Origin: a virus
Taxonomy: Duplodnaviria; Heunggongvirae; Uroviricota; Caudoviricetes
Virus record (IMG/VR): IMGVR_UViG_3300022561_000002
Direction: 5' to 3' (one strand)
DNA: 61,570 nt
In this document: positions 14,246-56,895 of the stretch, piece after piece
Layout: each line of letters opens with the position of its first letter
Numbering within the stretch: the first letter of the stretch is position 1
Made by a program: the position numbers and the translations under genes
The notes under the pieces: generated by a model
The model's input: the letters and a program-made list of their open reading frames with translations, nothing else
Databases searched by the model: none
What the model was told of the DNA's origin: nothing

Positions 14246-14281
14246 ATAAGAATTTCAAAATATATTAAGGAGGAAAAATAT

Positions 14282-14806: not shown

Positions 14807-14828
14807 TCTTTAGAAAGGAGATAACAAA

Positions 14829-15842: not shown

Positions 15843-15854
15843 TAAATAGAGAAG

Positions 15855-15891
15855 ATATGGGAGGGAGGTTCACCTCCTTCCCGATATTTTT
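15855..15891 (+). terminator. Intrinsic terminator
   Basis: GGGAGGGAGGT/ACCTCCTTCCC stem plus T-run. Confidence 0.8.
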
Positions 15892-15917
15892 GGTTTTAGG
15901 ATAAAAAGGAGAATAAA

Positions 15918-16487: not shown

Positions 16488-16505
16488 TAGAAAGAAGGAG
16501 TAATC

Positions 16506-17310: not shown

Positions 17311-17322
17311 AGGAGGGTTACT

Positions 17323-18519: not shown

Positions 18520-18522
18520 AGG

Positions 18523-19801: not shown

Positions 19802-19821
19802 TATTATAGGAGGTATAATAC

Positions 19822-36040: not shown

Positions 36041-36074
36041 TAAAAGGCATAATATGAAAATATTATGCCTTTTA
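36041..36074 (+). terminator. Terminator-like hairpin after the fibre gene
   Basis: TAAAAGGCATAATA-TGAAAA-TATTATGCCTTTTA, 14-bp perfect stem. Confidence 0.8.
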
Positions 36075-36077
36075 TTA

Positions 36078-36106
36078 TTGACAAATCATTTTTTATATGA
36101 TATAAT
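36078..36106 (+). promoter_or_regulatory. Consensus sigmaA promoter of the enzyme cassette
   Basis: TTGACA-17 nt-TATAAT with TG extension. Confidence 0.9.
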
Positions 36107-36154
36107 ATTAAAAGATAGAGAACAAACAAATTGCACAGATTAAAAGGAGGTTTT

Positions 36155-38830
36155 ATGAAAAAGATAAAAATAGCTTTTCTTGATATTGTTGGTTTAAGAT
36201 ACAATGGGCACACCCTTAATAAAAGAGGATTAGGTGGCTCTGAATCTTCAACTATATATATGGCAAAAGAATTAAATGACTTAGGTTTTGATGTTACTGT
36301 TTTTTGCAAAATAGAAGGAGATGAACAAAGTTATGATGGTGTAAATTATATTTCAAATGAAAAGTGTAAAGATAATACTGAAAAATTTGATATATTAGTT
36401 ACATTGCGTTCTTGCGTTCCGTATATACCAATACAATATAGAGAAGATGTATATAGAGAAACTGGATATGATATTGAAAATACTATTGGATTAGTTAAAA
36501 ATAGTGGCTATAAAGTTTTATGGTTACATGATACATTTTGCTCAGGAGATAATTGGCTTGAGCACATATGCATAGACGGATATTTTGATGAAATCTTTAC
36601 ATTATCAGATTGGCACAGTAATTATATTATGAATGGTCATACTTGGAGAGGTAGAATCTTCGAAGTATTAAAAAATAAAATTTGGCAAACAAGAGATGGA
36701 ATAAGAAGCTACATAGATGAAGTTGATATATCTAAAAAAGACAAAGATTTATTTGTATACAATGCGTCAGTATCAAAAGGCATGACACCACTATTAGAGC
36801 AGTGTTGGGGTAAAATAAGAGAACAAATACCAACAGCAAAATTAATGGTTATAGGTGGTTATTATAGAGGTGCAAATCATGATAATCCTGATGAACAAGA
36901 GTTACAGTGGATGAAATTAAAAGAAAATTATGATGGAAAAGATGGAGTTCATTTTACAGGTATAATTTCACAAAGAGAGATTGCTGAAATATTAAGTAAG
37001 GCTTCATTAATGGTTTATCCAGCTTTATTTCCCGAAACATTTGGGATTTCTACATTAGAGTCTTTAAATTATAATACACCATTGGTGACGTGTCGCTTTG
37101 GCGCATTGGAAGAAACAGCAATTGAAAAAGCTTGTTATTTAATTAATTATGATATTAACTATAATGAACAACAAATTGATAGATTTGTAGAAATGGTTTT
37201 AAAAGCATATAATGATGATTATTTAAGAAAGCAAAAAATGTATGCATGTAATGAAACAAAAGAAATAAATACATGGGATACGATTGCTTTACAGTGGAAG
37301 CAGCATTTTTATAATAAATTAGACTTATATATGCCATTTAATGAATTAACAAAAGTAAGAAGGGTTAATTCAGAAGCTCAAAGAATATTTAAAAGAAGAT
37401 TTTTAAACAAAGAGGATATAATTGAAAGTAGTACTGTAAACAATAAATTCATTATAATAACACCTGTATATAATGCAGAAAATTATATAAAAAAATGTAT
37501 TGACAGTGTGGCAAATCAGGTATATAATAAATATAAGATGATTATTATAGACGATATGTCTACTGATAATACAGTTAATATAATAAAAGAAACCATAGAA
37601 AATTATCCACCAAATATTAAAAATAAATTTCAGTTAGTAATTAATACTGAGAAAAAATATGCAGTTAGTAATCAAGTTGATGCAATTAACTTATATGAAA
37701 ATGATTCTAGTATTATAGTTCTATTAGATGGAGATGATTGGTTAGTAAATGATAATGGAGTATTTAATTACTTAGATAATCTTTATATTGATGGATGCGA
37801 TATGTCTTACGGTAGTTGTCATTCTTTAGTTGATAACATAGATTTAATATCAGAACCTTATCCTAAGAATGTAATTGAAGAAAAATCTTTTAGAACACAT
37901 TTATTTACTTGGGGTATGCCTTATACACATTTAAGAACTTTTAAAAAAGAATTATTTAATAAAATAGATAAGTCTTTATTTAGAGATGAAAATGGAGAGC
38001 ATTGGAAAGCTGGTGGAGATAATGCTTTATTTTATCCACTGTTAGAAAATGCAAACAATATAAAATGCATTCAAAGAGTTTTAATGATTTATAATGATAT
38101 TAATCCACTAAATGACTATAAAATTAATGGGGAAGAACAAACTAAAACTGCAAATAAAATAAGAGATAAAAAATATGATATTACAGATATGAATGAGTTA
38201 AAAGATATTTATAATGAAGTTTTAGATAGAAATGATAATGCTATAAAATTATTGAAAGATACTCTTGTTAATAGAAAAGATACTTGGATTGATAATACAG
38301 ATGCACCTAATATAATAGATAGAAAAAATTGGCTTAAAGATAAATTTGAGGAATTAAATATATCTAAAGAAAGTGTTATATTAGATATAGGTTCTTGGAC
38401 TGGTGGGTTTATTAATGAATTTTATAAAATGGGATATAAGGATATATCCTGTGTCGAAATTAGTAAAGAAGCATATAAATTAGGAAGTCAAACATATCCA
38501 AGTTGGCACTGGATGAACGGAGATATAGAAGATTTTGTTTTACCACCTATTAAATATGATGTAGTGGTAATGTTTGAAGTCATAGAACATTTAGTAAATC
38601 CAATAGAAGCTATAAATAAAATAAAATTATCTTTAAGTGATAATGGTAAAATATTTTTTAGTATTCCAAAAGAAGATTCTATGAACGCTGATGGTATGGC
38701 TTATGAACATATATCGTATATAACCAAAAAACAACTTGATGAATTAGATGCTAAGGTTGAAGATTTATCATCTAAAGCAACACATTTTAATTGGTATATG
38801 GGATATATAGAAAATAAAAAAAAAGGATAG
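36155..38830 (+). CDS. GT4 + GT2 glycosyltransferase + SAM methyltransferase fusion
   Basis: GLGGSE and PETFGISTLE (GT-B); ITPVYN...IIDDMSTD...DGDD (GT-A); ILDIGSWTG...FEVIEH (class I MTase). AAGGAGG before MKKIK. Confidence 0.9.
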   Translation: MKKIKIAFLDIVGLRYNGHTLNKRGLGGSESSTIYMAKELNDLGFDVTVFCKIEGDEQSYDGVNYISNEKCKDNTEKFDILVTLRSCVPYIPIQYREDVYRETGYDIENTIGLVKNSGYKVLWLHDTFCSGDNWLEHICIDGYFDEIFTLSDWHSNYIMNGHTWRGRIFEVLKNKIWQTRDGIRSYIDEVDISKKDKDLFVYNASVSKGMTPLLEQCWGKIREQIPTAKLMVIGGYYRGANHDNPDEQELQWMKLKENYDGKDGVHFTGIISQREIAEILSKASLMVYPALFPETFGISTLESLNYNTPLVTCRFGALEETAIEKACYLINYDINYNEQQIDRFVEMVLKAYNDDYLRKQKMYACNETKEINTWDTIALQWKQHFYNKLDLYMPFNELTKVRRVNSEAQRIFKRRFLNKEDIIESSTVNNKFIIITPVYNAENYIKKCIDSVANQVYNKYKMIIIDDMSTDNTVNIIKETIENYPPNIKNKFQLVINTEKKYAVSNQVDAINLYENDSSIIVLLDGDDWLVNDNGVFNYLDNLYIDGCDMSYGSCHSLVDNIDLISEPYPKNVIEEKSFRTHLFTWGMPYTHLRTFKKELFNKIDKSLFRDENGEHWKAGGDNALFYPLLENANNIKCIQRVLMIYNDINPLNDYKINGEEQTKTANKIRDKKYDITDMNELKDIYNEVLDRNDNAIKLLKDTLVNRKDTWIDNTDAPNIIDRKNWLKDKFEELNISKESVILDIGSWTGGFINEFYKMGYKDISCVEISKEAYKLGSQTYPSWHWMNGDIEDFVLPPIKYDVVVMFEVIEHLVNPIEAINKIKLSLSDNGKIFFSIPKEDSMNADGMAYEHISYITKKQLDELDAKVEDLSSKATHFNWYMGYIENKKKG

Positions 38831-38831
38831 T

Positions 38832-39446
38832 GTGGAAATGATGAATGATATAAAGAAGAAAATTTTAATTGCAATACCTACTGCTAAAAATATCGAAACG
38901 GATACCTTCAAATCAATTTATAATTTATATAAGCCTGAAAATACTGAATTGCATTTTGAATGTTTTTATGGTTATAATATAGATCAAGTAAGAAATTTAA
39001 TGGCAAGTTATACCATTAATAATAATTTTGATTACATTTTCTGTGTAGATTCGGATATAGTTTTACCTAAAGATTCTTTGATAAAATTATTATCACACAA
39101 TAAAGATATTATAAGTGGTGTATATAGACAAAGATTTTTAGAGGAAAATATGCCAGAGTTGTACTTAAATGAAAATGGTAGAATTTTTAGAGCTACAATT
39201 GAAGACATTAAAGAAGATAAAATCATGGAAGTGAGTAGTTGCGGCTTTGGATGTACATTAATATCTAAAAGTTTATTATATAGAATAGGATATCCACAAT
39301 TTGAATATCATTCTTCTATTGATTTTAATAAAACAATTTCAGAAGATACAGATTTCTGTATCAAAGCAAATAAATGTGGAACTAAAGTATATGTTGACAC
39401 AAGTATTAAATGTGGACATATAGGAAGTTTTGAATTAAAAATTTAA
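38832..39446 (+). CDS. GT-A (GT2-like) glycosyltransferase
   Basis: IAIPT, RN, VDSD, GFGCTLI, SEDTDFC, CGHIG. Confidence 0.85.
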   Translation: MEMMNDIKKKILIAIPTAKNIETDTFKSIYNLYKPENTELHFECFYGYNIDQVRNLMASYTINNNFDYIFCVDSDIVLPKDSLIKLLSHNKDIISGVYRQRFLEENMPELYLNENGRIFRATIEDIKEDKIMEVSSCGFGCTLISKSLLYRIGYPQFEYHSSIDFNKTISEDTDFCIKANKCGTKVYVDTSIKCGHIGSFELKI

Positions 39447-39463
39447 GAAAGGAGTTGAATTAA

Positions 39464-40090
39464 TTGGCTATAACACTTCCTTACTCGACGGCAAATGTGC
39501 AATTTGGTACTGACACATATGTTTATGGTTGGTCAACTTCTGTTGGTTCATATTCTAACTCAAGTGTTATGACATCTAGTGGATATACTCGTATAAATTC
39601 TATAACAAGAAATCCGGATGGCACAAGAACTGTTAATGTAACTGTTTATTATTTAATGGCGATATCAAGAAGTGGATCCGATTCTGGAGTTTATACTTTC
39701 CAATCAACTCCAAATGTAAGATTTTATAATTCTGTATTGGCATCGTATATAACTATATATAACGCGGCTTTAACAACTACATGTGCAACTGGTGCATCGG
39801 CAAGTATAACACATTCATCAACAGTGAATATTTCAGTTCCTGCAACATGGTTCGCAACATCAACAGCAACCTGGAATTTTAGTACCACGCAAGAATGTAA
39901 AGTTGTAACAAGCGGAGCAGTATATACTCATACCAAAATAGATGCGGCGTTTATTATTGAAACTTTAAGAAGTATAGTTGTTAATGTAGATGGCGTATTA
40001 AAAACTGCATCAGCAGTATGGGCTAGAACAAATGATACGTTAAATCCACTCATAGATATGAAGATAGATGTTGATGGGGTATTGAAATGA
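39464..40090 (+). CDS. Ser/Thr-rich virion-like protein
   Basis: TTG after AAGGAG; beta-rich; C-terminal VNVDGVLK...VW motif reminiscent of fibre tips. Confidence 0.55.
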   Translation: MAITLPYSTANVQFGTDTYVYGWSTSVGSYSNSSVMTSSGYTRINSITRNPDGTRTVNVTVYYLMAISRSGSDSGVYTFQSTPNVRFYNSVLASYITIYNAALTTTCATGASASITHSSTVNISVPATWFATSTATWNFSTTQECKVVTSGAVYTHTKIDAAFIIETLRSIVVNVDGVLKTASAVWARTNDTLNPLIDMKIDVDGVLK

Positions 40091-41124
40091 GTATGATATA
40101 TGTATTTTATAACAAATATACTTTGGAAATTCTTACGGTATTAAGACCATTTATAAATAATATTGACATAAATGAATTTATTGAAAGTAGACTTATATAT
40201 GATGATAAATTTAAAAATTTAACATATAGTGATATAGATTATATAATAGAGGATACAGAAGAGTATGATTTTTTTAATGATAATCCATCTATATATAAGT
40301 GTATGTATATTGATAATAAAAAACGCAAATTAAAATTTAAATTAACAAAAAATGAAAATGTATTTATTAATACAACATATAATATACAAAAATATAAAAG
40401 AGATTATACAAATGTAGAAATTAATGAAATGTATGAAGAAGATTATATAAATTTTAATCTTAAAAACATTATGATATCAGATAATGATATTGAATTTTCT
40501 TTTGAGTATTTAAAAGATTTAAATATTAGGACTAAGATGGTTAATAAAAGATGGAAAAGTTTTCATAATGATCCATATTTAACTGAATCTTCTCAAGATA
40601 AAACCATGCTAGGAAAATCTATAGCAAAAATAGGAACATATTATCCTATATTAGTTGAACCCCAAAAGTCTGAAAATGGATTATATGCTTTAGAGGGCTC
40701 TCATAGAATAACCTCTTTAAAGCTTCTTCAAATGGAAGGTGGCATTCCAGAAGATTTTAAAATATTTTGTATTCATATGCCATATTCTTATCAAGATATA
40801 GAAACACCGAAAATGTTTACTGTATTAAAAAATCCAATATTAATCAGAAGAATAATCGAAGTTTATTACGGATCTGAAATACTAAATGATTCTATTTTAT
40901 ATGAAAAGGCATTATCTTCAATCAAAGAAGACGGAGATAAAATCATTAATAAATATACTTATGAAACATACATATATACGTTAGAAGAGCTATTGTCTGC
41001 TGTTGACTCATATCCACATTGGTTGAGAGATTTAATCCATATAGATGGTAGTATATTTCCTAGTGAAATAATTAATAAAGAATTAAAATTTAAGGAGTGG
41101 GTAAACGAATGTTATCACATATAA
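40087..41124 (+). CDS. ParB/Srx-fold protein, paralogue 1
   Basis: SIAKIGTYYPILV...LEGSHRITSL. Confidence 0.7.
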   Translation: MSMIYVFYNKYTLEILTVLRPFINNIDINEFIESRLIYDDKFKNLTYSDIDYIIEDTEEYDFFNDNPSIYKCMYIDNKKRKLKFKLTKNENVFINTTYNIQKYKRDYTNVEINEMYEEDYINFNLKNIMISDNDIEFSFEYLKDLNIRTKMVNKRWKSFHNDPYLTESSQDKTMLGKSIAKIGTYYPILVEPQKSENGLYALEGSHRITSLKLLQMEGGIPEDFKIFCIHMPYSYQDIETPKMFTVLKNPILIRRIIEVYYGSEILNDSILYEKALSSIKEDGDKIINKYTYETYIYTLEELLSAVDSYPHWLRDLIHIDGSIFPSEIINKELKFKEWVNECYHI

Positions 41125-42029
41125 GAAGAGTAGACATAGAGTTTCATTCATTTTGTAATAGAAGATGTATATGGTGTCCTAATACAGACTTTATAAGAGA
41201 TGATGAAGATATTGAAATGAGTGATGAACTTTATTCAAAAATCATAAATGAATTAAAAGATAATAATTTTGGAAAGTATCCTAGATTTCCTTTATCAGAA
41301 AATCGATCTCCAAAAGATAGTCCTAATTATTCAAAATTTATTATCAATCAGCCAGTTTTATCCTTTCTTGGTTATCAAGAACCATTATCAAATATACCAT
41401 TATTAAAGAAAAGAGTGCAAGAGGCTTGGGAAAAATTACCGCCTCATATAGAACTTGTTTCTAATACAAATGGAGATTATCTTACAGAAAAATCATTAGA
41501 CGGTTTGTTACTTACTACTTTAAATATTAAAGATTACGATTCTAAAGGTATGGAGTATTGGAAAGAAAGATTAAAAAAACTTGGCGTATTAATAATAGAT
41601 ATAGATGAAAATATAGAGCAAATTATAGGTGTCCATAAAAATGTAGGAAATGTAACTTGTTATTGTAATTGGCCTAAGCATATTGACCTAGAAGATAGAG
41701 GTGGATTTTTGAAAAAAGAAGATATCCCTGATATAAAATGGCGAAATAATGCGAAAGAACGAACTGAAATTTGTTTAGAACCAAGCTATTATATCAACAT
41801 TCATTACAATGGAGATATTATGCCGTGTTGTCATTTAAGAATGGATAATCCTATGCATAAAGAATTCATTCTAGGTAATGTAAATAATAATACTTTAGTA
41901 GAAATACATAATAATGAAAAAGCTAATAATTTGAAAGAAATACTTTCGATAGAAGATGGTAATTTCCCTTCAACTTGTTTAAATTGTCAAAAAATTAGGC
42001 AAGAGGGGTTAAACAGGTTTCCCTCATGA
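41109..42029 (+). CDS. Radical SAM/SPASM(twitch) protein 1
   Basis: CNRRCIWC; NTNG; CLEP...GDIMPCC...GN...CLNC. Confidence 0.9.
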   Translation: MLSHIRRVDIEFHSFCNRRCIWCPNTDFIRDDEDIEMSDELYSKIINELKDNNFGKYPRFPLSENRSPKDSPNYSKFIINQPVLSFLGYQEPLSNIPLLKKRVQEAWEKLPPHIELVSNTNGDYLTEKSLDGLLLTTLNIKDYDSKGMEYWKERLKKLGVLIIDIDENIEQIIGVHKNVGNVTCYCNWPKHIDLEDRGGFLKKEDIPDIKWRNNAKERTEICLEPSYYINIHYNGDIMPCCHLRMDNPMHKEFILGNVNNNTLVEIHNNEKANNLKEILSIEDGNFPSTCLNCQKIRQEGLNRFPS

Positions 42030-43030
42030 TATATGGAATAATTTTTTATGATAGCATAGATGGAGAAATGCTTTATAATACTAGTTGTATAGATTATAAT
42101 AATATAGAAAAAATTATAGATAATTGTTATGAATATCTAAATATAGAATATAAAAGCATTAAAAATATTTTATATAAATTATATGATTATAATTTATACA
42201 AAGACAATTTTGAAAAACATCAAAGTGTTAGAGTTACATCAGATGGAGAAATATTTTTTTCAGATAAAGAAATAAAATATAGAATTGGTCTTAAACATAG
42301 CATGACAGATAGATGGTATCCACTATTCGAAGAAATGTCAGGCATTTATAATAAAGAAAATCAAGTTATAAGTCTTGAAATATTAACATATTACTACAAT
42401 GATTTTATTAATTATAATCTTAAAAATATTTGTAAAATAGTGCCGTTTCATTTTTTACACCCTAATGAAATGTTTAGATCTAATGAAAATAATGAGAAAG
42501 CGTTAGTAAGATGGGGCGAAGACTTAATACCAACGTTAGTTGAAATGTGTGAAGAGCTTAATATAAATAACTGTATATTTCCATTTCAGGTTAGAAAAAA
42601 GAATGATAGCTTTTTGATATTAGATGGTTCTCATAAATTAATAGCAATGAAGGAATTAATTAAAAACGATTCTTTTAAAATAGATAGAAAGATTCTTTCA
42701 ATTGAATTTAATAGTGTTAATCCTACTTCTATTGATAATAACACTATTAATTGTAAATTAGATAACCCAATTACTATGCATATACCTAAATTATTATTAA
42801 ATAAATATCATTTTATAAACTATCTAACTATGCAAGATTTTGATGATAATATTATGGAAGTTACTGTAGATAGATATATTGAAATGGTTACTTTATTTAG
42901 AGTTTATATATTAGAATTAACTATTCCTATAAGAAGATATAAAATAATAACAGGAAAGACATTAAGTCCGTTTGATTTTATAGAGGATGAATACAAATTT
43001 AAGATATGGATGGAAGACGATAATGAATAA
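42026..43030 (+). CDS. ParB/Srx-fold protein, paralogue 2
   Basis: CIFPFQV...LDGSHKLIAM. Confidence 0.65.
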   Translation: MIYGIIFYDSIDGEMLYNTSCIDYNNIEKIIDNCYEYLNIEYKSIKNILYKLYDYNLYKDNFEKHQSVRVTSDGEIFFSDKEIKYRIGLKHSMTDRWYPLFEEMSGIYNKENQVISLEILTYYYNDFINYNLKNICKIVPFHFLHPNEMFRSNENNEKALVRWGEDLIPTLVEMCEELNINNCIFPFQVRKKNDSFLILDGSHKLIAMKELIKNDSFKIDRKILSIEFNSVNPTSIDNNTINCKLDNPITMHIPKLLLNKYHFINYLTMQDFDDNIMEVTVDRYIEMVTLFRVYILELTIPIRRYKIITGKTLSPFDFIEDEYKFKIWMEDDNE

Positions 43031-43766
43031 AATTCAAAAAAGACTAATAGAAAACTGGTCTGACCTTCAACTTAATATATGGCAAAACATACAAAATGAT
43101 TATACTAGAAAAATAATTGTAGATAAAACATATATTATTACTAATCTTTATAAAGAACAAAAGATTATTTTAGATAATTATATTGATTATAAATTTATTA
43201 AAGAATTTTATAATTATTTCATAGATAATATTAAAATAATAATGGGAAATTATTTATATGAATATATATACCCACAAGATACTAGGATCATAGATGTAAA
43301 AGGCGGCATATCTTTTAATGGATTTTCATTTTCTTTATCCTCAATGTGTGAAAGTATTTTAAAAAATGGATTATATATACCTTTAATATGCGATAGACAA
43401 AGCAATGACACACTAGCTATTGTTGGAGGAAGACATAGAATAATTGCTCTAAAAGAAATATATAATAAAAGAAAATTTTTATGTCTTATGTTTAATGAAA
43501 GACAATCTGATATAAAATGTGAGTTCACGTTACCAACTATATTATTAGAAAAATATTTTAATAATTATGATATTATATATTGTAAAATAGATAAATATTT
43601 TTCTATAGTATATATTGATAATCCAGTGGATTTATGGATTTTATTTAAATTACAAGAAAAGGAACTTGATTTAATATTTGAAATGTATTCAGAGCAATTA
43701 TATGAAAACAATATATTTGGTTCTGAATTACTTTTTAAAAAAGGAGAAGAGGTATGTTATGAATGA
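43023..43766 (+). CDS. ParB/Srx-fold protein, paralogue 3
   Basis: SILKNGLYIPLIC...VGGRHRIIAL. Confidence 0.72.
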   Translation: MNKIQKRLIENWSDLQLNIWQNIQNDYTRKIIVDKTYIITNLYKEQKIILDNYIDYKFIKEFYNYFIDNIKIIMGNYLYEYIYPQDTRIIDVKGGISFNGFSFSLSSMCESILKNGLYIPLICDRQSNDTLAIVGGRHRIIALKEIYNKRKFLCLMFNERQSDIKCEFTLPTILLEKYFNNYDIIYCKIDKYFSIVYIDNPVDLWILFKLQEKELDLIFEMYSEQLYENNIFGSELLFKKGEEVCYE

Positions 43767-45030
43767 ACTAAAGCCATTAGGAAAATTTAATTATGCAAAA
43801 ATGAACGGGAGTATGCCTTTAAGAGAAAAGGTTATTTATTTAGAATCGTATTTATCATCAAGAAAAATATTCTCTAAATATTACCTAGATGAATATAGTT
43901 TAGAGAAAAGAAATAAAAAACATGATTGGATTGAAAAATATTTTAGTAAAGTAATATCTTTAGAAGGAATTAATATGGTAGAGTCTACCACAAACGAAAT
44001 AAAAGGAGATATTGTAGATTTAAGTAATATTAAAAAAGGTGTACTATCGGAGATAATGTATATTGGAGATAAATTGAGGTGTAAATTTTTATATCTTGAA
44101 AATGATGGTTCTATTGAAATGATGACATTATTTTTAACAGAAGAAGAATGTGATGAAATGAGAATATTAAGTGAAGATTTAGACTATTTATTTTATGAAG
44201 AAAGTTTATCTCTTGGGGATGACGTTATTAGCAATCCAAATATTATAGTTGAAAAAATAAGAAATAAAAAAGATAGAAATTATGTTACTACAAAATTTGA
44301 AGGCGATTGGACAGAAGAACAAAAAGATACTTGGGAAATAATAAAGCAAATTAGTCCCAGAGTCCGCATTGATGGAAAAGTTCATATTAATGCAGTTTTA
44401 TATTCTACCGGATATTTATTTCATAATGATAAAAGTTTGAGAATGGACTTTATTAATGAATTTGTTAATGCTTTTTATTCTAATGTAAAAAATATGACAA
44501 AGGCTTTTGATTATGATTATTTGCAATTTTCAGAAATTCAGGATAAACTTCAGGATTTAAGGAACGGCGCAGGCTTTGATGGATTTTCTTTTACTTTAGA
44601 TTCATTAAAAAACGATATATATACAAATGGTTTATTTTTCCCAATGTATGCCTATATAAATAAAGAGCCTGGTAAGTATGTTATCTGCGGCGGCAGGCAT
44701 CGACTTATCGCTATTAATCAATTAGTAGAAGAAGGACTATGGAAAGATAGAAAAATCCTATGTATGTTTTGGGATTCTCGTAAACAATTTGATAGTATAG
44801 ATTTAATTATTCCAAATATAATTATAGAAAAAATGTTATATAAATTAAATATTGATATAAAACCATATTCAAGTGGATTTTCAACTGTAGGAGTTAAAAA
44901 CATTATTGACTTTTGGATTGTTATGCGTGTATTTGAAAAAGAAATGGACTTTTTAATAGAAAAATATGAAGATGAATTACTTAGTTATGGTATAAAGGCA
45001 TCTAAATTTATTAACCCTTGGATGGTGTAG
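43759..45030 (+). CDS. ParB/Srx-fold protein, paralogue 4 (extra N-terminal domain)
   Basis: DIYTNGLFFPMYA...CGGRHRLIAI. Confidence 0.72.
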   Translation: MNELKPLGKFNYAKMNGSMPLREKVIYLESYLSSRKIFSKYYLDEYSLEKRNKKHDWIEKYFSKVISLEGINMVESTTNEIKGDIVDLSNIKKGVLSEIMYIGDKLRCKFLYLENDGSIEMMTLFLTEEECDEMRILSEDLDYLFYEESLSLGDDVISNPNIIVEKIRNKKDRNYVTTKFEGDWTEEQKDTWEIIKQISPRVRIDGKVHINAVLYSTGYLFHNDKSLRMDFINEFVNAFYSNVKNMTKAFDYDYLQFSEIQDKLQDLRNGAGFDGFSFTLDSLKNDIYTNGLFFPMYAYINKEPGKYVICGGRHRLIAINQLVEEGLWKDRKILCMFWDSRKQFDSIDLIIPNIIIEKMLYKLNIDIKPYSSGFSTVGVKNIIDFWIVMRVFEKEMDFLIEKYEDELLSYGIKASKFINPWMV

Positions 45031-45031
45031 T

Positions 45032-45754
45032 ATGGATGATATAGCTTTCTCAGAGATACAAAAAAAATATTTAAAAATTAAGAAATCAAAATACCATGAA
45101 ACAAATGGTAAGCAAAATAATAATAGTATTTTAAATTATAATCCACAAAAAAACTTTAATGAAATTATACTTTTATATAATATCTTTATTGATAATTTAA
45201 AATCAATGATAGATAGTAAATCTTTTGATGGTGGATACTGCGGAAAAGAGTTTTTAAAAAAACAAATTAGAGATTCAAAAGAAGAAATTGATTTTAATAA
45301 ATTCTTTATTCCATATGCGGAATTAGAGTATATTGTATATAATACTGGATGCTATCTACCAATGGTAGTATTTAAAACAGAAGAAAAATATAATATAATG
45401 GAATGTTTACATAGCAGGTATCCATCTACTATGTTGCAAATATTATTTTCAGAAAATAAAATAGATAATAGAAGTATATTTTATATAGAGAAAAGTTTTA
45501 TTAAAAAAAATAGTGAATGTAATTTGAAAATTCCAAAACAACTTTATGATGAGGTTATTATTAATTTAGAATTAGAAGTAATAGAAACACAATCAAATTT
45601 TTTAACAATAAAAACAAAAGATAATATGGACGCATGGTTAATATTTAAATTAATTCACAAAGAAGTAAGTTGGGTAACAGGCAAATATGGGTTTGAGTTA
45701 TACAATATGGGAATGAAGCCATCTAATTTTATAAATATAGAGGAGAATAATTAA
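45032..45754 (+). CDS. ParB/Srx-fold protein, paralogue 5 (degenerate motif)
   Basis: NTGCYLPMVV...ECLHSRY; shares C-terminal motifs with paralogues 3 and 4. Confidence 0.55.
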   Translation: MDDIAFSEIQKKYLKIKKSKYHETNGKQNNNSILNYNPQKNFNEIILLYNIFIDNLKSMIDSKSFDGGYCGKEFLKKQIRDSKEEIDFNKFFIPYAELEYIVYNTGCYLPMVVFKTEEKYNIMECLHSRYPSTMLQILFSENKIDNRSIFYIEKSFIKKNSECNLKIPKQLYDEVIINLELEVIETQSNFLTIKTKDNMDAWLIFKLIHKEVSWVTGKYGFELYNMGMKPSNFINIEENN

Positions 45755-45755
45755 A

Positions 45756-46457
45756 ATGATATATAATAAAAATACTGTTATTGCCGAGTTAGCTGGTAAA
45801 GATAGTATAGTAGCTATAATAAAATACGCAAAGGAAAATAAAGATAGTTATATTCTTCCTACAATTATTAAAGTTCCTTCTGAGGAAAGTAGACACCAAG
45901 AGCTTTTTTCATTTTATGAACAATTACAAAATTATATTACAACTCTTGGGTCACATATGTATACACCTTTATTTTTAGATGAATCTACTTATTGGTGGAG
46001 TCTTAATCAACCAATCGCAAGTATGATAAAAGAATATAATTTCTATAGTCCATGTATTGCGTGTCATGGATTATTACACTCTATAAGGATTCCTTTGGCT
46101 CAGGTCTATAGTGGTAAAATACTAACTGGAGAAAAGCTTTTACATAATGGGAAAATAAAAATAAACCAAAATAGCATAGTTCTTGATATTTTTGATGATT
46201 TATTTAAGAAATATAATATTGAAGTTATTAGGCCGATAGATGATGATGCGAATGAAATTATAGATGAATTTTATAATCAATATAATATAGAGGAAGTAAA
46301 ATATATAAAATGTTATATGAGTGGAAATTCAAACGTTAATCACATAAATGATTTAAAAGAATATAATATAAATAAATATTGTTATGAATACCTTATACCT
46401 AAACTAGATAATATTATTAAAGAGATAAAAGAGGAGGGTAATATATATGACAAGTGA
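45756..46457 (+). CDS. PP-loop (adenine nucleotide alpha hydrolase-like) protein
   Basis: VIAELAGKDS (SGGxDS-like), PCIACH, ILTGE, KINQ, CYMSGN. Confidence 0.6.
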   Translation: MIYNKNTVIAELAGKDSIVAIIKYAKENKDSYILPTIIKVPSEESRHQELFSFYEQLQNYITTLGSHMYTPLFLDESTYWWSLNQPIASMIKEYNFYSPCIACHGLLHSIRIPLAQVYSGKILTGEKLLHNGKIKINQNSIVLDIFDDLFKKYNIEVIRPIDDDANEIIDEFYNQYNIEEVKYIKCYMSGNSNVNHINDLKEYNINKYCYEYLIPKLDNIIKEIKEEGNIYDK

Positions 46458-47310
46458 AAATTGCGATTATATAGAAAGACAAAAAGACTTAAATAAAAAT
46501 GGGAAAAGATTATATGGTAAAAAAATGTTACAAAGCCATGTTCCATATAATATTTGGAACGAGGAAACAGATACTTTTGATTTAGATAAAATACTTAAAA
46601 TATATGAATGCTTTAAGTATAATATGATTTTACTATCTGAAGATTTTATACCACACTGGATTGAACCAGAAGGGTTATTATATACAACAAAATCTTTGAT
46701 TTGGGATTGGACTGATGAAAGTGAGTTAAATAAAACTGCTGATAGTATAGAAAAATATGGACTTTACTTTCCAATATTTGTCTTACCTAAAGGTATGTTA
46801 CATAATCAGATATGCGATTTAGAAGAAGAAGCTAGATTAAAAAATTTGAATATATATAATTCATATAATGGAAATCATAGGATAGATGCAATACAGTTTT
46901 TAAAAGAAAACAATAGATTCAATAAAAAAATACTTGTTTATGAGATTCCTCCATATTGTCAAAAATCATGTACTGGATTTAAATATACATTTATAGATCA
47001 TAATGAACCAAATGAATTGACCGACTATAAACTTAAAACAGGAGTTAGACTATACCATCTATCTTATTTAGAAGATGAAATGAAAATGTCTAATTTAGAG
47101 TTTTGTAAAAATATAGAAGATGGAATAGTCCAAGTTCGTGTTGATAATTACAATACTGCATTTAGGATATTAACAGAAATGCAGAATGCGCTAGAGGCAC
47201 CATTAACTAGATATTTTGAATTGTATAATAAATTACCAGACGGCTTAGATAATTCTTTTTTTAATAACTATGAGATATGGAAAAAGGAAGTGGTTAAATA
47301 TGACTGGTGA
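46447..47310 (+). CDS. ParB/Srx-fold protein, paralogue 6
   Basis: SIEKYGLYFPIFV...NGNHRIDAI. Confidence 0.72.
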   Translation: MTSENCDYIERQKDLNKNGKRLYGKKMLQSHVPYNIWNEETDTFDLDKILKIYECFKYNMILLSEDFIPHWIEPEGLLYTTKSLIWDWTDESELNKTADSIEKYGLYFPIFVLPKGMLHNQICDLEEEARLKNLNIYNSYNGNHRIDAIQFLKENNRFNKKILVYEIPPYCQKSCTGFKYTFIDHNEPNELTDYKLKTGVRLYHLSYLEDEMKMSNLEFCKNIEDGIVQVRVDNYNTAFRILTEMQNALEAPLTRYFELYNKLPDGLDNSFFNNYEIWKKEVVKYDW

Positions 47311-47485
47311 GGAAATTATTCAGTTGGGTAAAGCTTGTAAATCAATACATTTTGAAATACCTTTATGCGTTGACTGGGAAACCCGAAAATACTGTGATAG
47401 AAAATTATGTTGTACGGTGTGTCCTCAACTATATGGATGCGATATTGTTTGTGATGAATTGGCAAAAATTTTATATAAAATATAA
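47300..47485 (+). CDS. Cys-rich peptide (61 aa, 8 Cys)
   Basis: Start overlaps the upstream gene end; MTGEEII...YCDRKLCCTVCPQLYGCDIVC. Confidence 0.7.
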   Translation: MTGEEIIQLGKACKSIHFEIPLCVDWETRKYCDRKLCCTVCPQLYGCDIVCDELAKILYKI

Positions 47486-47486
47486 T

Positions 47487-47515
47487 TTGACTAATACTTA
47501 AATATATGATATAAT
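47487..47515 (+). promoter_or_regulatory. Internal sigmaA promoter
   Basis: TTGACT-17 nt-TATAAT with TG extension. Confidence 0.85.
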
Positions 47516-47553
47516 AAAAATATGATATCACAAGTATAGATAAAAGGAGAAAC

Positions 47554-48369
47554 ATGATAAACAATTTAAGATTAGTTGAAATAGAGCTTTTTTCATATTG
47601 CAATAGACAATGCGGATGGTGCCCTAATAATACCATAGATAGACTTTCGTTTAATAAGTTTATTGATACAAAAGTTTTATTACATCTTTTAAAAGAATTA
47701 AAAGAAAATAATTATGATGGAGCAATAACCTTTTCTAGATATAATGAACCTATGTCGCACATAAAACAATTTAAAGATTTTTTATATGAAATAAAAAATG
47801 AACTTCCTAATAATAAACTAATAACAAATACAAACGGGGATTTTATTTCTAAAGAAAATTTAATGGGCTTAATGTTAGATGAATTAACCATAATGGACTA
47901 TGATGGATTAGGAATAGATGGTTGTATAGAGGTATTAAATAAAGCAAATGTAATTATTGATGATGTGAAATATCCTTATATATATGGACATTTTGACTCT
48001 ATAGAAATATTATATTTTGTTGATTGGCAAAAAAATAGAAAGATTACTGATAGAGGTGGTTTTCTAAAAAGCTATTCGCAAATATTACGAGATAAGCCGT
48101 GTTTTGAACCAAATTATTTTGTAGGTATTAATTACGATGGAACTGTATCTCCTTGTTGTAATATAAGAAATGATATAGAACAACATAAACCATATATAAT
48201 TGGAGACCTAAATAATAACTCTTTCTCAGAAGTATTATCAAGTTATAAATCTAATTTAATAAAAAAAATATGTAATAACGGGAGTTTTATAAAAGATTCC
48301 CCATGTTATATGTGTGAAAATAGTGGCGGAAGATATACAAGAGGGAATGGGGGCATATCATATGAATAA
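47554..48369 (+). CDS. Radical SAM/SPASM(twitch) protein 2
   Basis: CNRQCGWC; NTNG; CFEP...GTVSPCC...GD...CYMC. Confidence 0.9.
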   Translation: MINNLRLVEIELFSYCNRQCGWCPNNTIDRLSFNKFIDTKVLLHLLKELKENNYDGAITFSRYNEPMSHIKQFKDFLYEIKNELPNNKLITNTNGDFISKENLMGLMLDELTIMDYDGLGIDGCIEVLNKANVIIDDVKYPYIYGHFDSIEILYFVDWQKNRKITDRGGFLKSYSQILRDKPCFEPNYFVGINYDGTVSPCCNIRNDIEQHKPYIIGDLNNNSFSEVLSSYKSNLIKKICNNGSFIKDSPCYMCENSGGRYTRGNGGISYE

Positions 48370-49015
48370 AAAAGTAGGGATATACATTCCCGCAAGGTTA
48401 AACAGTGAAAGACTTCCAAATAAACAAATACTACCAATAGGAGATACTTGTTTATTTGATATTGCATGTAAGAAATTGAACGAACTGCCAACGTATATTA
48501 ATAAGTATGCTTTAATTTATGAAAAAGAATTAATAGATATAGCAAGTAAGTATCCTAATATAAATATAATTCAAAGAAGCGAAGAGACCGCGAAAGCAGA
48601 AACTCCTCTTAATTATATTTTTCAAGATATGAAATACGTAGAGGATACTCATTTAATGTTCTTGAACCCTTGTCTTTTGTTTTTAACGAAAGAAACTATA
48701 TTAAAAGCATTAGATGAATTTATAAATTCTGATAACGATTATGCTACAAGTGTAAAACCATTTCATAATTGGATTTTAGATGAAAGAGGATTATGTCTGA
48801 ATGATATTAATTATAAAGAGTTAACAACTAAAAAAATCGAAGGATTATATCAATTTGCTCATTGTTTCCATATCTTTAATAAAGAAAACTTTTTTAAAGA
48901 CGGATATATGTTAAAATCAATGTTTTTGCCATTAGTTATTGCGGATGAAGAGACTATTGATGTTGATACTTTAGAAGAGTATAAATATGCGAGGTGGAAA
49001 TATGAAAATATATGA
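48362..49015 (+). CDS. neuA: CMP-nonulosonate synthetase-like cytidylyltransferase
   Basis: IPARLNSERLPNK; DVDTLEEY. Confidence 0.82.
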   Translation: MNKKVGIYIPARLNSERLPNKQILPIGDTCLFDIACKKLNELPTYINKYALIYEKELIDIASKYPNINIIQRSEETAKAETPLNYIFQDMKYVEDTHLMFLNPCLLFLTKETILKALDEFINSDNDYATSVKPFHNWILDERGLCLNDINYKELTTKKIEGLYQFAHCFHIFNKENFFKDGYMLKSMFLPLVIADEETIDVDTLEEYKYARWKYENI

Positions 49016-49310
49016 GGTTGATTTAGATGGAACTCTATGTACAAATACGTATGGAAATTATGAGAATGCTCAACCCATCCTCGAGAACATCGAAAAAATT
49101 AATAACCTGTATAGAAATGGTAACATTATTAATATTAATACTGGTCGTGGTAGCACCACTAGTATTGATTGGTATAATTTAACAGAGAAACAATTAAAAT
49201 TATGGGAAATAAAATACCACACTTTAACAGTTGGTAAAAAACCCTATTATGATTATATTATAGATGATAAAGCAATAAATGAGTGCGAGGAGGATTGGGA
49301 ATGTTTATAG
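49002..49310 (+). CDS. Minimal HAD phosphatase (EcbF/BcbF-like)
   Basis: DLDGTLC, TGR, KP, IIDDKA. Confidence 0.82.
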   Translation: MKIYEVDLDGTLCTNTYGNYENAQPILENIEKINNLYRNGNIININTGRGSTTSIDWYNLTEKQLKLWEIKYHTLTVGKKPYYDYIIDDKAINECEEDWECL

Positions 49311-50119
49311 CAGAAATTGGAATAAACCATGGCGGAGATATAAATATAGCTAAAGAATTAATTCTTATGGCTAAGAGGTCTGGCGCAAATGTAGTTAAAT
49401 TTCAGAAACGAAATGTAGAAGAAAATATATTACCACAAGACTTAAATACAACAAGAGAAACCTTAAAGGGAACTCGATCTTATTTAGATTATAAAACAGA
49501 TTTAGAATTTGAAATCTATGCTTATAGAGAGATAGATAAATTCTGTAAGTCTATTAATATGCCATGGACTGTTAGTGTTTGGGATATTACAAGTGTAGAG
49601 TTTATTTCACAATTTGATATCCCTTTTATTAAAGTTCCAAGTGCAAGAATTAATGAATTAGATTTATTAGAAGCTATTAACTCTACTGGTATTCCTGTGG
49701 TATTAAGTACTGGAATGAGTTCAAAAGAAGAAGTCGATAGTGCTATAAATGCTCTTGATAATCTTTCTTGTATAATGCACTGTGAAAGTATATACCCTCC
49801 AAAAGATAATGAATTAAATTTGAATATAATATCTTATTTAAAGGATTGTTATCCCAATATTAAAATTGGATATAGTAGTCATGATACATCAATTTATCCT
49901 ATGTTATGCGCGAGTACTCTAGGGGCAGAAATATTTGAAGCACATATAACATTAAATAAAAATATGATTGGTTCAGATCAAAAATGTAGCTTTGAAGAGA
50001 AGGAGTTAACCGAAATGATTTCTTTAATCAATAAAAGCAAACTATGGTTGGGGAATAAAGAAATTACTTGTTTAGAATCAGAAGAGCCTGCCAAGAAGAA
50101 ACTAAGACGAAAGTCTTAA
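49301..50119 (+). CDS. neuB: N-acetylneuraminate synthase family, lacking the C-terminal SAF domain
   Basis: IAEIGINHGG, VKFQKR, LSTGM, HCESIYP, GYSSHD, EAHITL, GSDQ. Confidence 0.9.
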   Translation: MFIAEIGINHGGDINIAKELILMAKRSGANVVKFQKRNVEENILPQDLNTTRETLKGTRSYLDYKTDLEFEIYAYREIDKFCKSINMPWTVSVWDITSVEFISQFDIPFIKVPSARINELDLLEAINSTGIPVVLSTGMSSKEEVDSAINALDNLSCIMHCESIYPPKDNELNLNIISYLKDCYPNIKIGYSSHDTSIYPMLCASTLGAEIFEAHITLNKNMIGSDQKCSFEEKELTEMISLINKSKLWLGNKEITCLESEEPAKKKLRRKS

Positions 50120-50165: not shown

Positions 50166-50411
50166 ATGGCAGTAATAGATACGTTAATAGATGGCAATGA
50201 TGTTGAGCAATATCCGAAAACAGTTACCGCTGCTATTTACGACAAGGACACAAATGAACGATTAGATAATAAATTGGCTAAAACTGTAGAGAATACTATA
50301 GTAGGTCAGAATTTAAAAGTATGGTATGGCACTAGAGTAGAGTATAATGCGATTATAACAAAAGATGTTAGTACGTTATATTTTATTAAAGATGTTATAG
50401 ATCCATTATAA
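50166..50411 (+). CDS. Small tail-fibre-associated protein
   Basis: YPKT and WYGTRVEYNAIITKDVSTLYFI motifs common in fibre proteins. Confidence 0.6.
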   Translation: MAVIDTLIDGNDVEQYPKTVTAAIYDKDTNERLDNKLAKTVENTIVGQNLKVWYGTRVEYNAIITKDVSTLYFIKDVIDPL

Positions 50412-50423
50412 AGGAGGAGTAAT

Positions 50424-51620
50424 ATGGCAGATTTAATTGCTAATGGAGAGGTTGCGAGTTCCATTAGAGCAAAAATAAACGCAATGAAAGTACAAGTTGA
50501 TGGAAAGGCAGATTTATCAAACGGAATAGTCCCTGCACATCAATTACCATCAGATACAAGAACTGATTCATATTTAACTTTTTGTGGAAATGCTAATGTA
50601 AATATGCTAGATGCAGCTTTTGGTAAAAATAATGAAGATAGGATAACGGGGATAGGTAGACAATTAGCGATGTATGCTTGGTTTAAAGGTTCAAACAAAC
50701 AATTTCATACACTTACTGAGCTTATACAATGTAATACTTTTGCTGAAATATTATCAAATAACGCTCCTTTATACGAAGCTTTTGGTAATCCCTATATTTA
50801 TGATCTTATTCAAGTTTCGCCTTATGCAAGTGCTTTATTTCCATTATATACGGCTTTAATTACATCTGGTACTTTGGCAACATTAAAACAAAGTACCGCT
50901 ATGGATACTATAACAACACATACAGTAATGGTGGATTATATAAGAAATAATCTCACATTGAGAGGTATATTAGCAACAAATTTAGGTTCAATTGTTAATG
51001 GAGGCGATACAACTTATACAGTTCCAGCTGGTGTAAATTATCTTACATTAGAAGCTGTTGGAACTGGTTCTAGTAATGCTGGCAAGCATATGTTTAAAGT
51101 TATTAAAGTAACTCCAGGAGAACAAATTATTGCACACACTGGCAGACAGGATGATCCTATTCCCGCTACAAAATTTGGAAGTTATTTAGAGATAACTGAA
51201 GTAGGAGGTTATGCTTCAACACAAACAGGTTCTTTCTTAGCACTTGCTGGCAATGGAGCGGGTGGAAACTCTGGTGTTGGTACCGCATATGGTGGTTATG
51301 GTGGAGGTGCTGGAGGAGTAGCTAATGGTAATGCCACTGGTTCGATCGCTGGTGGTATAGCAGCTTCAGCAACCAATGGAATAATTCTACCTGTTGGTAC
51401 AAATTCTGGAGGTAGAGGAAGACCAGGAGAATGGGCTGGAACTACCATTTACGGAGGAAATGCTCCAAATGGTGGTGGCGGTGCAGGAAATGGTTGCGGA
51501 TATGGTGGTAGAGTTGGTAATGGTGGTGGTGGCGGCTATGGTGGAGCTGGAGGAAGCGCCAATACATCTGGATCTGCAACTGGAGAAGGTGGAGCTGGAT
51601 GTATCGCTATTTATAGTTAA
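50424..51620 (+). CDS. Glycine-rich tail-associated protein (paralogue of 29146-30630)
   Basis: SYLTFCGNANVN; GGxGG-rich C-terminus ending GCIAIYS. Confidence 0.65.
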   Translation: MADLIANGEVASSIRAKINAMKVQVDGKADLSNGIVPAHQLPSDTRTDSYLTFCGNANVNMLDAAFGKNNEDRITGIGRQLAMYAWFKGSNKQFHTLTELIQCNTFAEILSNNAPLYEAFGNPYIYDLIQVSPYASALFPLYTALITSGTLATLKQSTAMDTITTHTVMVDYIRNNLTLRGILATNLGSIVNGGDTTYTVPAGVNYLTLEAVGTGSSNAGKHMFKVIKVTPGEQIIAHTGRQDDPIPATKFGSYLEITEVGGYASTQTGSFLALAGNGAGGNSGVGTAYGGYGGGAGGVANGNATGSIAGGIAASATNGIILPVGTNSGGRGRPGEWAGTTIYGGNAPNGGGGAGNGCGYGGRVGNGGGGGYGGAGGSANTSGSATGEGGAGCIAIYS

Positions 51621-56866: not shown

Positions 56867-56895
56867 ATTATATTATATTTTCAAAAAAATGTCAA
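56867..56895 (-). promoter_or_regulatory. Consensus sigmaA promoter
   Basis: TTGACA-17 nt-TATAAT. Confidence 0.85.

Follow-up and report, generated by a model that had tools for sequence, protein, structure and literature searches.

Why would a phage carry 14 kb of genes, placed between those for the tail fibre and for lysis, that most likely serve to make and alter a sialic-acid-like sugar, and why are these accompanied by two radical enzymes and six copies of a protein with a ParB-type fold? The question is raised by IMG/VR record IMGVR_UViG_3300022561_000002, a stretch of 61,570 nucleotides (here called the window) that is part of the genome of an uncultured, large, low-GC gut phage. An earlier note, made from the sequence, had described a cassette of 14 genes at this place. 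We count 16 open reading frames (ORFs; g01 to g16, Table 1), and the list in that note itself sums to 16. Its family assignments were all borne out, with g02 a weak call, the ParB/sulfiredoxin (Srx)-like and PP-loop proteins assigned by fold model, and one ParB-like paralogue degenerate in its motif. As argued below, the cassette very likely encodes a pathway for a tailored, CMP-activated nonulosonate-like sugar. The fuller reading, in which a cytoplasmic pathway makes, activates and remodels a nonulosonate and, together with glycosyltransferase (GT) steps, places it on a fibre protein, is put forward tentatively, at somewhat less than even confidence.

The genes belong together in other phages as well. 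Relatives were located in two ways. A search with the PP-loop protein led to three phage contigs (L001, L003 and L012), and a search with an alignment of the radical S-adenosylmethionine (rSAM) enzymes led to 79 IMG/VR loci and to contigs of metagenome-assembled genomes from Clostridia and Peptococcaceae. Single-protein scans of IMG/VR with g10, g13 and g11 gave no match; the rSAM alignment alone succeeded. Loci were tagged with hidden Markov models built from the cassette families. About 25 of them display the same core order: a fibre gene, in places a g03-like gene, a ParB-like gene of the g04 type, one or two rSAM genes, NeuA with a separate or fused HAD phosphatase, often a cupin of the phosphomannose isomerase (PMI) type, and NeuB. 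The core is carried both by siphovirus-like phages, such as L003 with its amidase and holin genes, and by T4-like myoviruses, such as L029 with its neck and gp15 genes, and the position next to the fibre genes is kept throughout this range. Thus the placing of the ParB array, rSAM and PP-loop genes in a Neu pathway, as proposed earlier, is supported by their synteny with NeuA and NeuB in the relatives examined, and the set does not correspond to a known capsule or lipooligosaccharide island.

The PP-loop gene, the pair of g11 and a Cys-rich ORF, and the additional ParB-like paralogues are confined to a subset (the window, L001, L003, L012, L092, L104 and L105). Within this range the window holds an elaborate copy. 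It has six ParB-like proteins and a PP-loop enzyme resembling YcfA, together with the 8-Cys protein and with GT-GT-methyltransferase and GT-A proteins of its own. The largest version seen is that of L105, which has nine ParB-like domains (two of them fused to rSAM), three rSAM domains, one PP-loop protein, NeuA, HAD and NeuB. L105 is logan contig SRR10769902_106093, positions 5653-20602 (about 15 kb); its HAD and NeuB were read in the overlapping L106 (14378-15546).

The sugar itself is expected from the last three genes. The NeuB-family synthase g16 reached 202 bits against PF03102 (E 1.3e-59, cut-off 22.1) and matched NeuB and PseI entries of the PDB at 1e-30 to 1e-19, the best being a short NeuB of 290 aa (6ncs, 1.3e-30). 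The cytidylyltransferase g14 reached 35.9 bits against PF02348 (8.8e-9, cut-off 22.6) and shares about 60% identity with the N-terminal portion of a NeuA::HAD fusion found in relatives. For the phosphatase g15 the match was to the capsule-biosynthesis phosphatase model TIGR01689 (9e-6, below cut-off), and its fused orthologue matches PDB entries 1xpj and 9iqw. A synthase, a phosphatase and a cytidylyltransferase are the set known from the 9-phosphate route to 2-keto-3-deoxy-nononic acid (KDN). A PMI-type cupin (3.8e-12) adjoins NeuB in many relatives. The cassette contains none of the NeuC, Pse or Leg genes for precursors. Because of this combination of synthase, phosphatase and cytidylyltransferase, of the PMI-like isomerase in relatives, and of the lack of NeuC, Pse and Leg genes, KDN-type logic seems to apply, and the sugar is probably a nine-carbon 2-keto-3-deoxy acid of the KDN type. 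No hydrophobic or membrane segment was found in any of the 16 products, in agreement with the earlier statement that the cassette has no transmembrane gene, and a cytoplasmic sugar pathway around NeuB, HAD and NeuA is supported.

NeuA and HAD have been split or fused repeatedly. A single protein of 309-317 aa is encoded at L001:11561-12490, L003:11516-12469, L012:11800-12732 and L092:10825-11760, and separate genes are found in L014, L016, L021, L022, L104 and the window (48362-49310), where the two overlap. That the split in the window is a frameshift artefact was considered and rejected, as the HAD gene has its own ribosome-binding site (RBS) and ATG.

The two rSAM enzymes, g05 and g13, are 32% identical to each other. 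When a profile of their family was run with hmmsearch against the sugar dehydrogenase BtrN (PDB 4m7s), the match was full length (profile 5-270 on BtrN 5-241) with an E of 5.4e-31. The motif C-N-R-x-C-x-W-C occurs in all full-length family members aligned, two gene calls in alignment A5 being without the N-terminus, and four C-terminal Cys are invariant. More distant cellular relatives are found in polysaccharide loci, with the orders ManC-GMD-rSAM-methyltransferase and GT4-rSAM-flippase. Based on the BtrN match and on this polysaccharide context, we infer that g05 and g13 are sugar dehydrogenases of the BtrN type and not peptide maturases, with a putative role in secondary-alcohol oxidation.

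Enzymes with SPASM domains can suggest a different product, a ribosomally synthesized and post-translationally modified peptide (RiPP), in which the Cys-rich g12 product or a fibre protein would be cross-linked and the sugar genes would decorate the result. SPASM domains and an 8-Cys ORF beside an rSAM gene resemble SCIFF and ranthipeptide loci, and there are weak NCBIfam matches to peptide maturases. However, the best peptide maturase for the rSAM profile, YydG, is reached at 6.5e-4 as compared with 5e-31 for BtrN, and the cassette contains no protease, exporter or RiPP recognition element domain. Furthermore, the Cys protein is missing from most rSAM loci and, where present, is conserved along its whole length. 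A RiPP is thus very improbable. Since the rSAMs are of the BtrN sugar-enzyme type, the Cys "peptide" of the earlier note is better described as a conserved small protein than as a RiPP precursor.

A 7-deazaguanine pathway (QueC/QueE/DpdB-like) was also considered for the ParB, PP-loop and rSAM trio. It was rejected, given the SPASM domain and BtrN match, no match to a QueC model, and no gene for a tRNA-guanine transglycosylase.

Some rSAM genes in the relatives deserve separate mention. The calls at L001:10848-11549 and L012:10863-11567 begin after the CX3CX2C motif, with about 145 bp of uncalled DNA upstream, and may be truncated or frameshifted copies, or have miscalled starts. Four IMG/VR loci (L034, L040, L044 and L051, at about 5000-16000) contain more distant rSAM relatives of 30-35% identity without NeuA or NeuB. 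There they sit in runs of at least 10 coupled genes of about 300 aa, some with matches to a g01-like GT or a cupin. Such runs have the look of further phage operons for glycans in which this radical enzyme is employed.

The ParB/Srx-like paralogues (g04, g06, g07, g08, g09 and g11) are joined to each other by a chain of BLASTP matches (for example, g08 and g07 are 29% identical, E 1.6e-26). Their fold was examined on g07, for which an AlphaFold2 (AF2) model was built on 18 homologues (pLDDT 88.7). In the VIA comparison, 32 entries gave Z of 9.3-5.1, all of them ParB, Noc, Srx, SerK, SbnI, KorB or PadC, and the next best gave 3.4. Foldseek searches of the PDB and AFDB agree, and the modelled g07 has the ParB/Srx alpha/beta core fold. 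The marks of a canonical ParB, a ParBc match and a helix-turn-helix (HTH) domain, are lacking in all six. No HTH or other DNA-binding domain was seen in the ParB-like proteins, and the g07 model continues after the core with beta strands and one long helix. The G, H and R of an x-G-x-H-R motif are at least 90% conserved in alignment A2, and E-G-x-H-R is invariant among g04-type orthologues (A6). The motif is lost in g09, which is probably non-catalytic, judging from this sequence change.

The company kept by these proteins is restricted. An exhaustive search of 1.84 billion representatives found only 22 relatives of g07, and all three whose contexts were retrieved lie in such cassettes. Every ParB-like context examined has an rSAM gene and NeuA, and NeuB is present as well except on L012, a truncated contig. 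A ParB-like gene is directly upstream of an rSAM gene in at least 20 loci, including g04 orthologues of about 343 aa in L014, L020, L021, L027, L029, L092 and L093. In addition, the two are joined in single chains, with the BtrN-like rSAM at the N-terminus and the ParB-like domain at the C-terminus, in L104 (571 aa, L104:1266-2981) and L105 (572 and 618 aa). Adjacency and repeated fusion suggest that ParB-like proteins work with the rSAM enzymes. The prediction of a g05 and g07 complex scored 0.00 and gives no evidence in either direction. Among the other paralogues, g06 is 45% identical to L001:6382-7383. Orthologues of g11 are about 49% identical in L001 and L003, a 287-aa ParB-like gene is at the same position in L104, and in all three loci a Cys-rich ORF of 60-72 aa follows.

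There is a precedent for such a partnership. In clade C1 of the phage thymine dioxygenases 5mYOX, the enzyme requires as its activator a ParB-fold protein that has no DNA-binding domain (PMC13229309). A partner or activator role is therefore plausible here, and we place a ParB-rSAM partnership at about even chances.

The PP-loop protein g10 was likewise assigned by fold. No match was found in Pfam, NCBIfam or PHROG, and a profile run against PDB sequences gave nothing relevant; membership thus failed at the sequence level and rests on fold comparison. The AF2 model (pLDDT 87.6) matched YcfA best in Foldseek (E 3.8e-6, TM 0.75-0.81), followed by QueC, NcsA, TtuA, ThiI, MnmA, TilS and ArgG, and a model from the atlas gave a TM of 0.8 to ThiI/QueC clusters. 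The motif (E)LAGKDS stands near the N-terminus, where a PP-loop is expected, with at least 90% conservation in alignment A4, its first two positions deviating from SGGxDS. Residues C100, C103, H104 and C186 are conserved as well. YcfA acts on GTP, adenylating its C6 carbonyl and adding cysteine (PMC12494993). The 8-Cys protein g12, which was also called with a length of 61 aa on an independent contig, is possibly a metal or Fe-S protein that serves the rSAM enzymes.

Homologues of g10 also occur in cells (L009:10001-10807 and L010:1893-2726; 28-30% identity, 268-277 aa, no Pfam match). The first, from a bacterium, is beside RNase III and fatty-acid synthesis genes, and the second, from an archaeon, is beside a gene for a ThiL-like AIRS protein. 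They look like an uncharacterised conserved family in housekeeping neighbourhoods.

The ParB-like and PP-loop proteins together could also point to DNA. The cassette might hypermodify DNA or the nucleotide pool, with ParB-like proteins directing or activating enzymes on DNA, the PP-loop enzyme altering a base carbonyl, and a sugar on the base evading restriction. ParB-like activators (PMC13229309) and GTs are established in phage DNA hypermodification neighbourhoods, the closest structural relative of g10 thioamidates GTP, and all of the proteins are cytoplasmic. Nevertheless, the cassette is in the fibre module in every lineage and not beside replication genes, its core is inseparable from NeuA and NeuB, the ParB-like proteins have no DNA-binding domain, and the cellular rSAM relatives are in polysaccharide loci. 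Neither Tet/JBP nor a ThyA-type hydroxymethylase was found in two complete related genomes, the Tet_JBP search having no positive control. We know of no nonulosonate-DNA adduct, which counts against this use of the cassette. It is improbable overall.

Returning to the nonulosonate pathway, the folds, families, neighbourhoods and fusions described above would be consistent with the following chemistry. NeuB would condense phosphoenolpyruvate with a sugar phosphate, mannose-6-phosphate coming from the PMI-like cupin in relatives and from the host in the window phage. The small HAD would then strip the phosphate and NeuA would form the CMP-sugar. The two BtrN-type rSAMs would act on secondary hydroxyls of the sugar, oxidising them with no need for NAD or oxygen. 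The ParB/Srx partner of each might bind a nucleotide (an NTP or the CMP handle) and then activate the rSAM, present the substrate, or phosphorylate the sugar. The YcfA-like enzyme would adenylate a carbonyl or carboxyl for substitution by N or S, yielding an amidine, thio or amide group, and the 8-Cys protein may supply electrons to the rSAMs. In the window phage only, the GT4-GT2-methyltransferase and the GT-A protein would build and cap a glycan. The preferred acceptor would be the Ser/Thr-rich fibre proteins encoded on both sides.

The enzymes proposed for the last step are encoded at the left end of the cassette. All three parts of g01 were recognised by Pfam (Glycos_transf_1 6.7e-15, Glycos_transf_2 1.8e-17, Methyltransf_23 7.2e-14), and AAAGGAGG precedes its ATG. 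For g02 there are PHROG matches (phrog_1574 4.8e-25; glycosyltransferase families 4.6e-8 and 9.7e-7), with Anp1 and Glyco_trans_2_3 of Pfam below cut-off. The adjoining g03 has no match in Pfam or PHROG. Its homologues adjoin the cassette in L014, L020, L028-L031 and L093, and it is a candidate acceptor or fibre accessory. The GYTGS fibre (25% Ser+Thr, 1.3% Pro) is another candidate acceptor. Downstream, g17 resembles the C-termini of tail proteins, and homologues of g17 and g18 adjoin the cassette in L014. Attachment to the virion is slightly favoured, as it would fit the linkage to fibre genes, which holds in every lineage up to the presumably virulent T4-like myoviruses, the soluble enzymes, the Ser/Thr-rich neighbours on both sides of the GTs, and a GT-GT-methyltransferase that recalls viral capsid-glycan enzymes.

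Several observations weigh against the pathway and acceptor as proposed. Counterparts of g01 and g02 were not found in any Neu-bearing relative examined; among these, the window alone has them, so that the GTs and methyltransferase, which had earlier been counted in the system, do not belong to its conserved part. In two related genomes (129 kb and 140 kb, 100% complete by CheckV) there are no GT2, GT4 or Maf transferases at all. The core module is therefore independent of phage transferases, and the step to a virion acceptor is weakened. NeuB, NeuA and HAD all remain below equivalog cut-offs (for g16, 208 bits against 399.65 for TIGR03569 and 150.7 against 340.25 for TIGR03586; for g14, the PseF and KdsB models), which leaves the KDN type of the sugar no more than probable, and the window has no cupin. 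No Pfam match (including ParBc, PF02195) was obtained for any of the six paralogues even at E up to 10, and their profile reached Spo0J, Noc and ParB in the PDB at a mere 0.4-2.4; as these sequence-level tests failed, the ParB assignment rests on fold comparison. Whether such a protein is a kinase, an activator or a transferase is a guess, and the closest structural relative of g10 acts on GTP and not on a sugar.

The missing transferases also bear on where the sugar ends up. The same pathway, in the window phage with its extra GT steps, might feed a surface glycan of the host (capsule, S-layer, flagellin or wall polymer), altering the receptor so that infected cells and debris stop adsorbing phage, or seroconverting a lysogen. 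As GT2, GT4 and Maf genes are missing from most relatives, the two complete genomes among them, a host transferase would be needed, and the EpaA and EpaB proteins, which are encoded by a prophage and convert pseudaminic acid to 8-epipseudaminic acid in Acinetobacter baumannii, provide a precedent (PMC12053666). Fibres adjacent to the cassette in relatives show Laminin_G_3 and faint sialidase-lectin and BNR signals that hint at acidic-sugar receptors. The fibre-lysis junction is a classic site for cargo genes, host-type promoters (P1 and P2, see below) would permit expression from the onset of infection, and soluble GT4 and GT2 enzymes often use lipid-linked intermediates. Against this, the cassette has no flippase, polymerase, ligase or membrane protein, the module is also present in T4-like, presumably virulent phages, and a virion acceptor would account no less well for the linkage to fibres and for the Ser/Thr-rich neighbours. 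The host surface is a possible destination, on the doubtful side. Of the earlier proposal of a glycan on virion proteins, what stands is that this is one of two comparably likely fates; the two complete genomes devoid of transferases do not allow more.

The cassette is set off from its surroundings by a lower GC content (22.6-28.4%, as compared with 31-40% in the flanks). Window proteins recur on other contigs, the longest of 126,789 bp. Besides the 963-aa collagen-like GYTGS fibre, the window codes for a portal, a tape-measure protein, a tail protein assigned by its PHROG tail family and, further downstream, an endolysin. As previously described, a terminator and a perfect promoter open the run. 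The hairpin was not flagged by the terminator scan because only 4 T stand behind the stem. P1 and P2 share ATATGATATAAT. Sigma-70-like sites are not enriched across the window (142 versus 138 in shuffles). The 16 ORFs, from 36155 to 50119 on the + strand, overlap or are separated by less than 20 nt, except at one gap of 68 nt (47486-47553) that contains P2. There are probably two transcription units, P1 to g01-g12 and P2 to rSAM2-NeuA-HAD-NeuB. The terminator scan found no terminator 3' of NeuB, the next one being at 52229, and the fibre-like g17 and g18 are therefore probably on the same transcript. Thus the cassette is self-contained, as had been claimed, at its start but not at its end.

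A second perfect 12/12 sigma-70 match, at 37500-37528 (+) within g01, may be due to chance in AT-rich DNA or be an internal promoter for the GT2-methyltransferase part and downstream genes. In the early or replication region a 600-aa NodU/CmcH-type carbamoyltransferase is encoded at 2601-4403 (-) (Carbam_trans_C 1.7e-49, Carbam_trans_N 4.8e-17); its putative substrate could be a sugar or a nucleoside. The structural block is flanked by a PIN-PhoH fusion (5776-6984), a dUTPase-like protein (55347-56015), a guanylate kinase (56892-57464) and a Pol III alpha-type polymerase (57468-61307). In L001 a LAGLIDADG-like ORF (16595-17467) is found among the fibre genes just 3' of the cassette.

Table 1. 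Position of the cassette genes, their signals and the flanking fibre genes in the window.
Feature	Position	Strand	Basis
Collagen-like GYTGS tail fibre, directly upstream of cassette	33145..36036	+	PHROG tail-fibre families, 2.5e-69
Hairpin ending the tail-fibre transcript (14-bp stem, GAAA loop)	36042..36073	+	Read directly in sequence
Promoter P1, TTGACA-17-TATAAT, TG extended -10	36078..36106	+	12/12 sigma-70 match, intergenic gap
g01, GT4-GT2-SAM methyltransferase fusion, 891 aa	36155..38830	+	Pfam
g02, small GT-A-like protein, about 202 aa (weak call)	38838..39446	+	PHROG
g03, soluble Ser/Thr-rich protein (29% Ser+Thr)	39464..40090	+	Composition
g04, ParB/Srx-like, "core" type, 345 aa, EGSHR	40087..41124	+	Orthologues, synteny
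g05, BtrN-type rSAM dehydrogenase 1 (putative), CX3CX2C and SPASM/twitch	41109..42029	+	Pfam SPASM 2.7e-12; start refined
g06, ParB/Srx-like, 334 aa, DGSHK	42026..43030	+	BLASTP links to g07, g08, g04
g07, ParB/Srx-like, 247 aa, GGRHR, modelled member	43023..43766	+	AF2 model
g08, ParB/Srx-like, N-terminal extension, 405-423 aa, GGRHR	43759..45030	+	BLASTP to g07
g09, ParB/Srx-like, degenerate nucleotide motif LHSRY	45032..45754	+	BLASTP to g08, E 2.5e-15
g10, PP-loop (adenine-nucleotide alpha-hydrolase), YcfA-like, ELAGKDS	45756..46457	+	AF2 model
g11, ParB/Srx-like, 287 aa, NGNHR	46447..47310	+	Orthologues
g12, conserved 8-Cys small protein, 61 aa	47300..47485	+	Cys pattern in L001, L003, L104
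Promoter P2, TTGACT-17-TATAAT with TG	47487..47515	+	11/12 match, sole real intergenic gap
g13, BtrN-type rSAM dehydrogenase 2 (putative)	47554..48369	+	Pfam SPASM 2.8e-9, Fer4_12, Radical_SAM
g14, NeuA-type CMP-sugar cytidylyltransferase	48362..49015	+	Pfam CTP_transf_3
g15, small HAD phosphatase, DLDGT motif	49002..49310	+	Own RBS and ATG
g16, NeuB-family PEP-condensing synthase without SAF/AFP domain, 272-278 aa	49301..50119	+	Pfam NeuB
g17 (81 aa) and g18 (398 aa), fibre-like, downstream, not cassette enzymes	50166..51620	+	Homology

Both the adsorption of phages and recognition by the immune system depend on the sialic-acid-like sugars that microbes display at their surfaces, and changes of surface sugars driven by phages already complicate capsule typing, as in the case of EpaAB. 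If the proposed pathway is correct, a route to custom versions of such sugars that does not depend on oxygen is encoded beside the host-recognition genes of many uncultured phages, gut siphoviruses and aquatic T4-like myoviruses among them. The ParB/Srx fold would then have a third role, as partner of an rSAM sugar enzyme, after DNA partitioning and the activation of DNA dioxygenases, and the enzymes could help in making unusual nonulosonates. A more far-reaching proposal, which we regard as rather unlikely, is that the paralogues form a class of their own, hitherto undescribed, as dedicated partners of BtrN-type rSAMs, to which they are sometimes fused. They would read the nucleotide handle and so present a CMP-sugar to the rSAM, or switch the enzyme on, or they could be the missing CMP-sugar transferases. 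The degree to which a viral nonulosonate is remodelled would then be set by how many ParB/rSAM units a phage has (1 to 9), and the product would be an acidic sugar with several modifications, not seen before, that serves to decorate the fibres of the phage or to mask the receptor.

The combination appears to be new, as the earlier note had supposed. Among the 50,697 deposited phage genomes in GenBank no match was obtained by megablast of the 14 kb or by tblastn of g13 and g04, PHROG has no family for the ParB-like, PP-loop, rSAM and Cys proteins, and the literature searched gave no description of a system with ParB-like, rSAM, PP-loop and Neu proteins. Added by the present analysis are the rSAM::ParB-like fusions and the dispensability of phage transferases for the core.

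Individual parts can be compared with known systems. In Bacteroides thetaiotaomicron KDN, a deaminated sialic acid, is made by a KDN-9-phosphate synthase, a KDN-9-phosphate phosphatase and a CMP-KDN synthetase. The cassette resembles this route in having a NeuB-family synthase, a HAD protein and a CTP_transf_3 protein, and the PMI-like cupin of relatives would make mannose-6-phosphate. It differs in that the HAD is of the small TIGR01689 type and not KdsC-like C0, and is fused to NeuA in relatives, in that NeuB is without the SAF domain, and in the added rSAM, ParB-like and PP-loop genes. Virion glycosylation by viruses is known from mycobacteriophage capsids and tails and from chlorovirus PBCV-1, whose A064R is a GT-GT-methyltransferase, and host nucleotide sugars are used. 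The cassette likewise has a soluble, multi-domain GT-GT-methyltransferase beside structural genes and no export machinery, whereas its acceptor is putative and its GT genes are not conserved with the module.

BtrN, the 2-deoxy-scyllo-inosamine dehydrogenase of butirosin synthesis (PDB 4m7s, 4m7t), shares with the cassette rSAMs a length of about 270-310 aa, the CX3CX2C motif and a C-terminal auxiliary-cluster domain. In contrast, the cassette enzymes are phage-borne and duplicated, occur in a nonulosonate and not an aminocyclitol context with no aminotransferase following, and are paired with, sometimes fused to, a ParB/Srx-fold domain. The serine kinases SerK and SbnI and sulfiredoxin have the same core fold as the ParB-like paralogues (Z 6.0-8.6), and the G-x-H-R type motif recalls the GCHR of sulfiredoxin, but there is no relationship at the sequence level, the flanking domains are different, and kinase activity is only putative. 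YcfA of 6-thioguanine biosynthesis (PDB 9kq6, 9kq7) is the best structural match over the whole of g10; here the identity is 13-14%, no YcfC-like pyridoxal phosphate lyase is nearby, the motif is the ELAGKDS variant, and the substrate is presumably a sugar amide or carboxylate. As in 5mYOX clade C1, a ParB-fold protein without a DNA-binding domain would be the dedicated partner of a modifying enzyme, but the enzyme in the cassette is an rSAM sugar enzyme and not an iron/2-oxoglutarate DNA dioxygenase, there is no ParBc match, up to six ParB-like proteins are found per cassette in the window and nine in L105, and there are covalent fusions. Finally, EpaAB is also phage-borne nonulosonate tailoring, combining CTP_transf_3 with oxidoreductases and no phage transferase, the host installing the product. 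EpaAB works on a host-made sugar with an aldo-keto reductase and a short-chain dehydrogenase/reductase, whereas the cassette adds a synthase, rSAM enzymes, ParB-like proteins and a PP-loop protein. Viral nonulosonate biosynthesis and tailoring is a known kind of system, and one of its components here is genuinely new.

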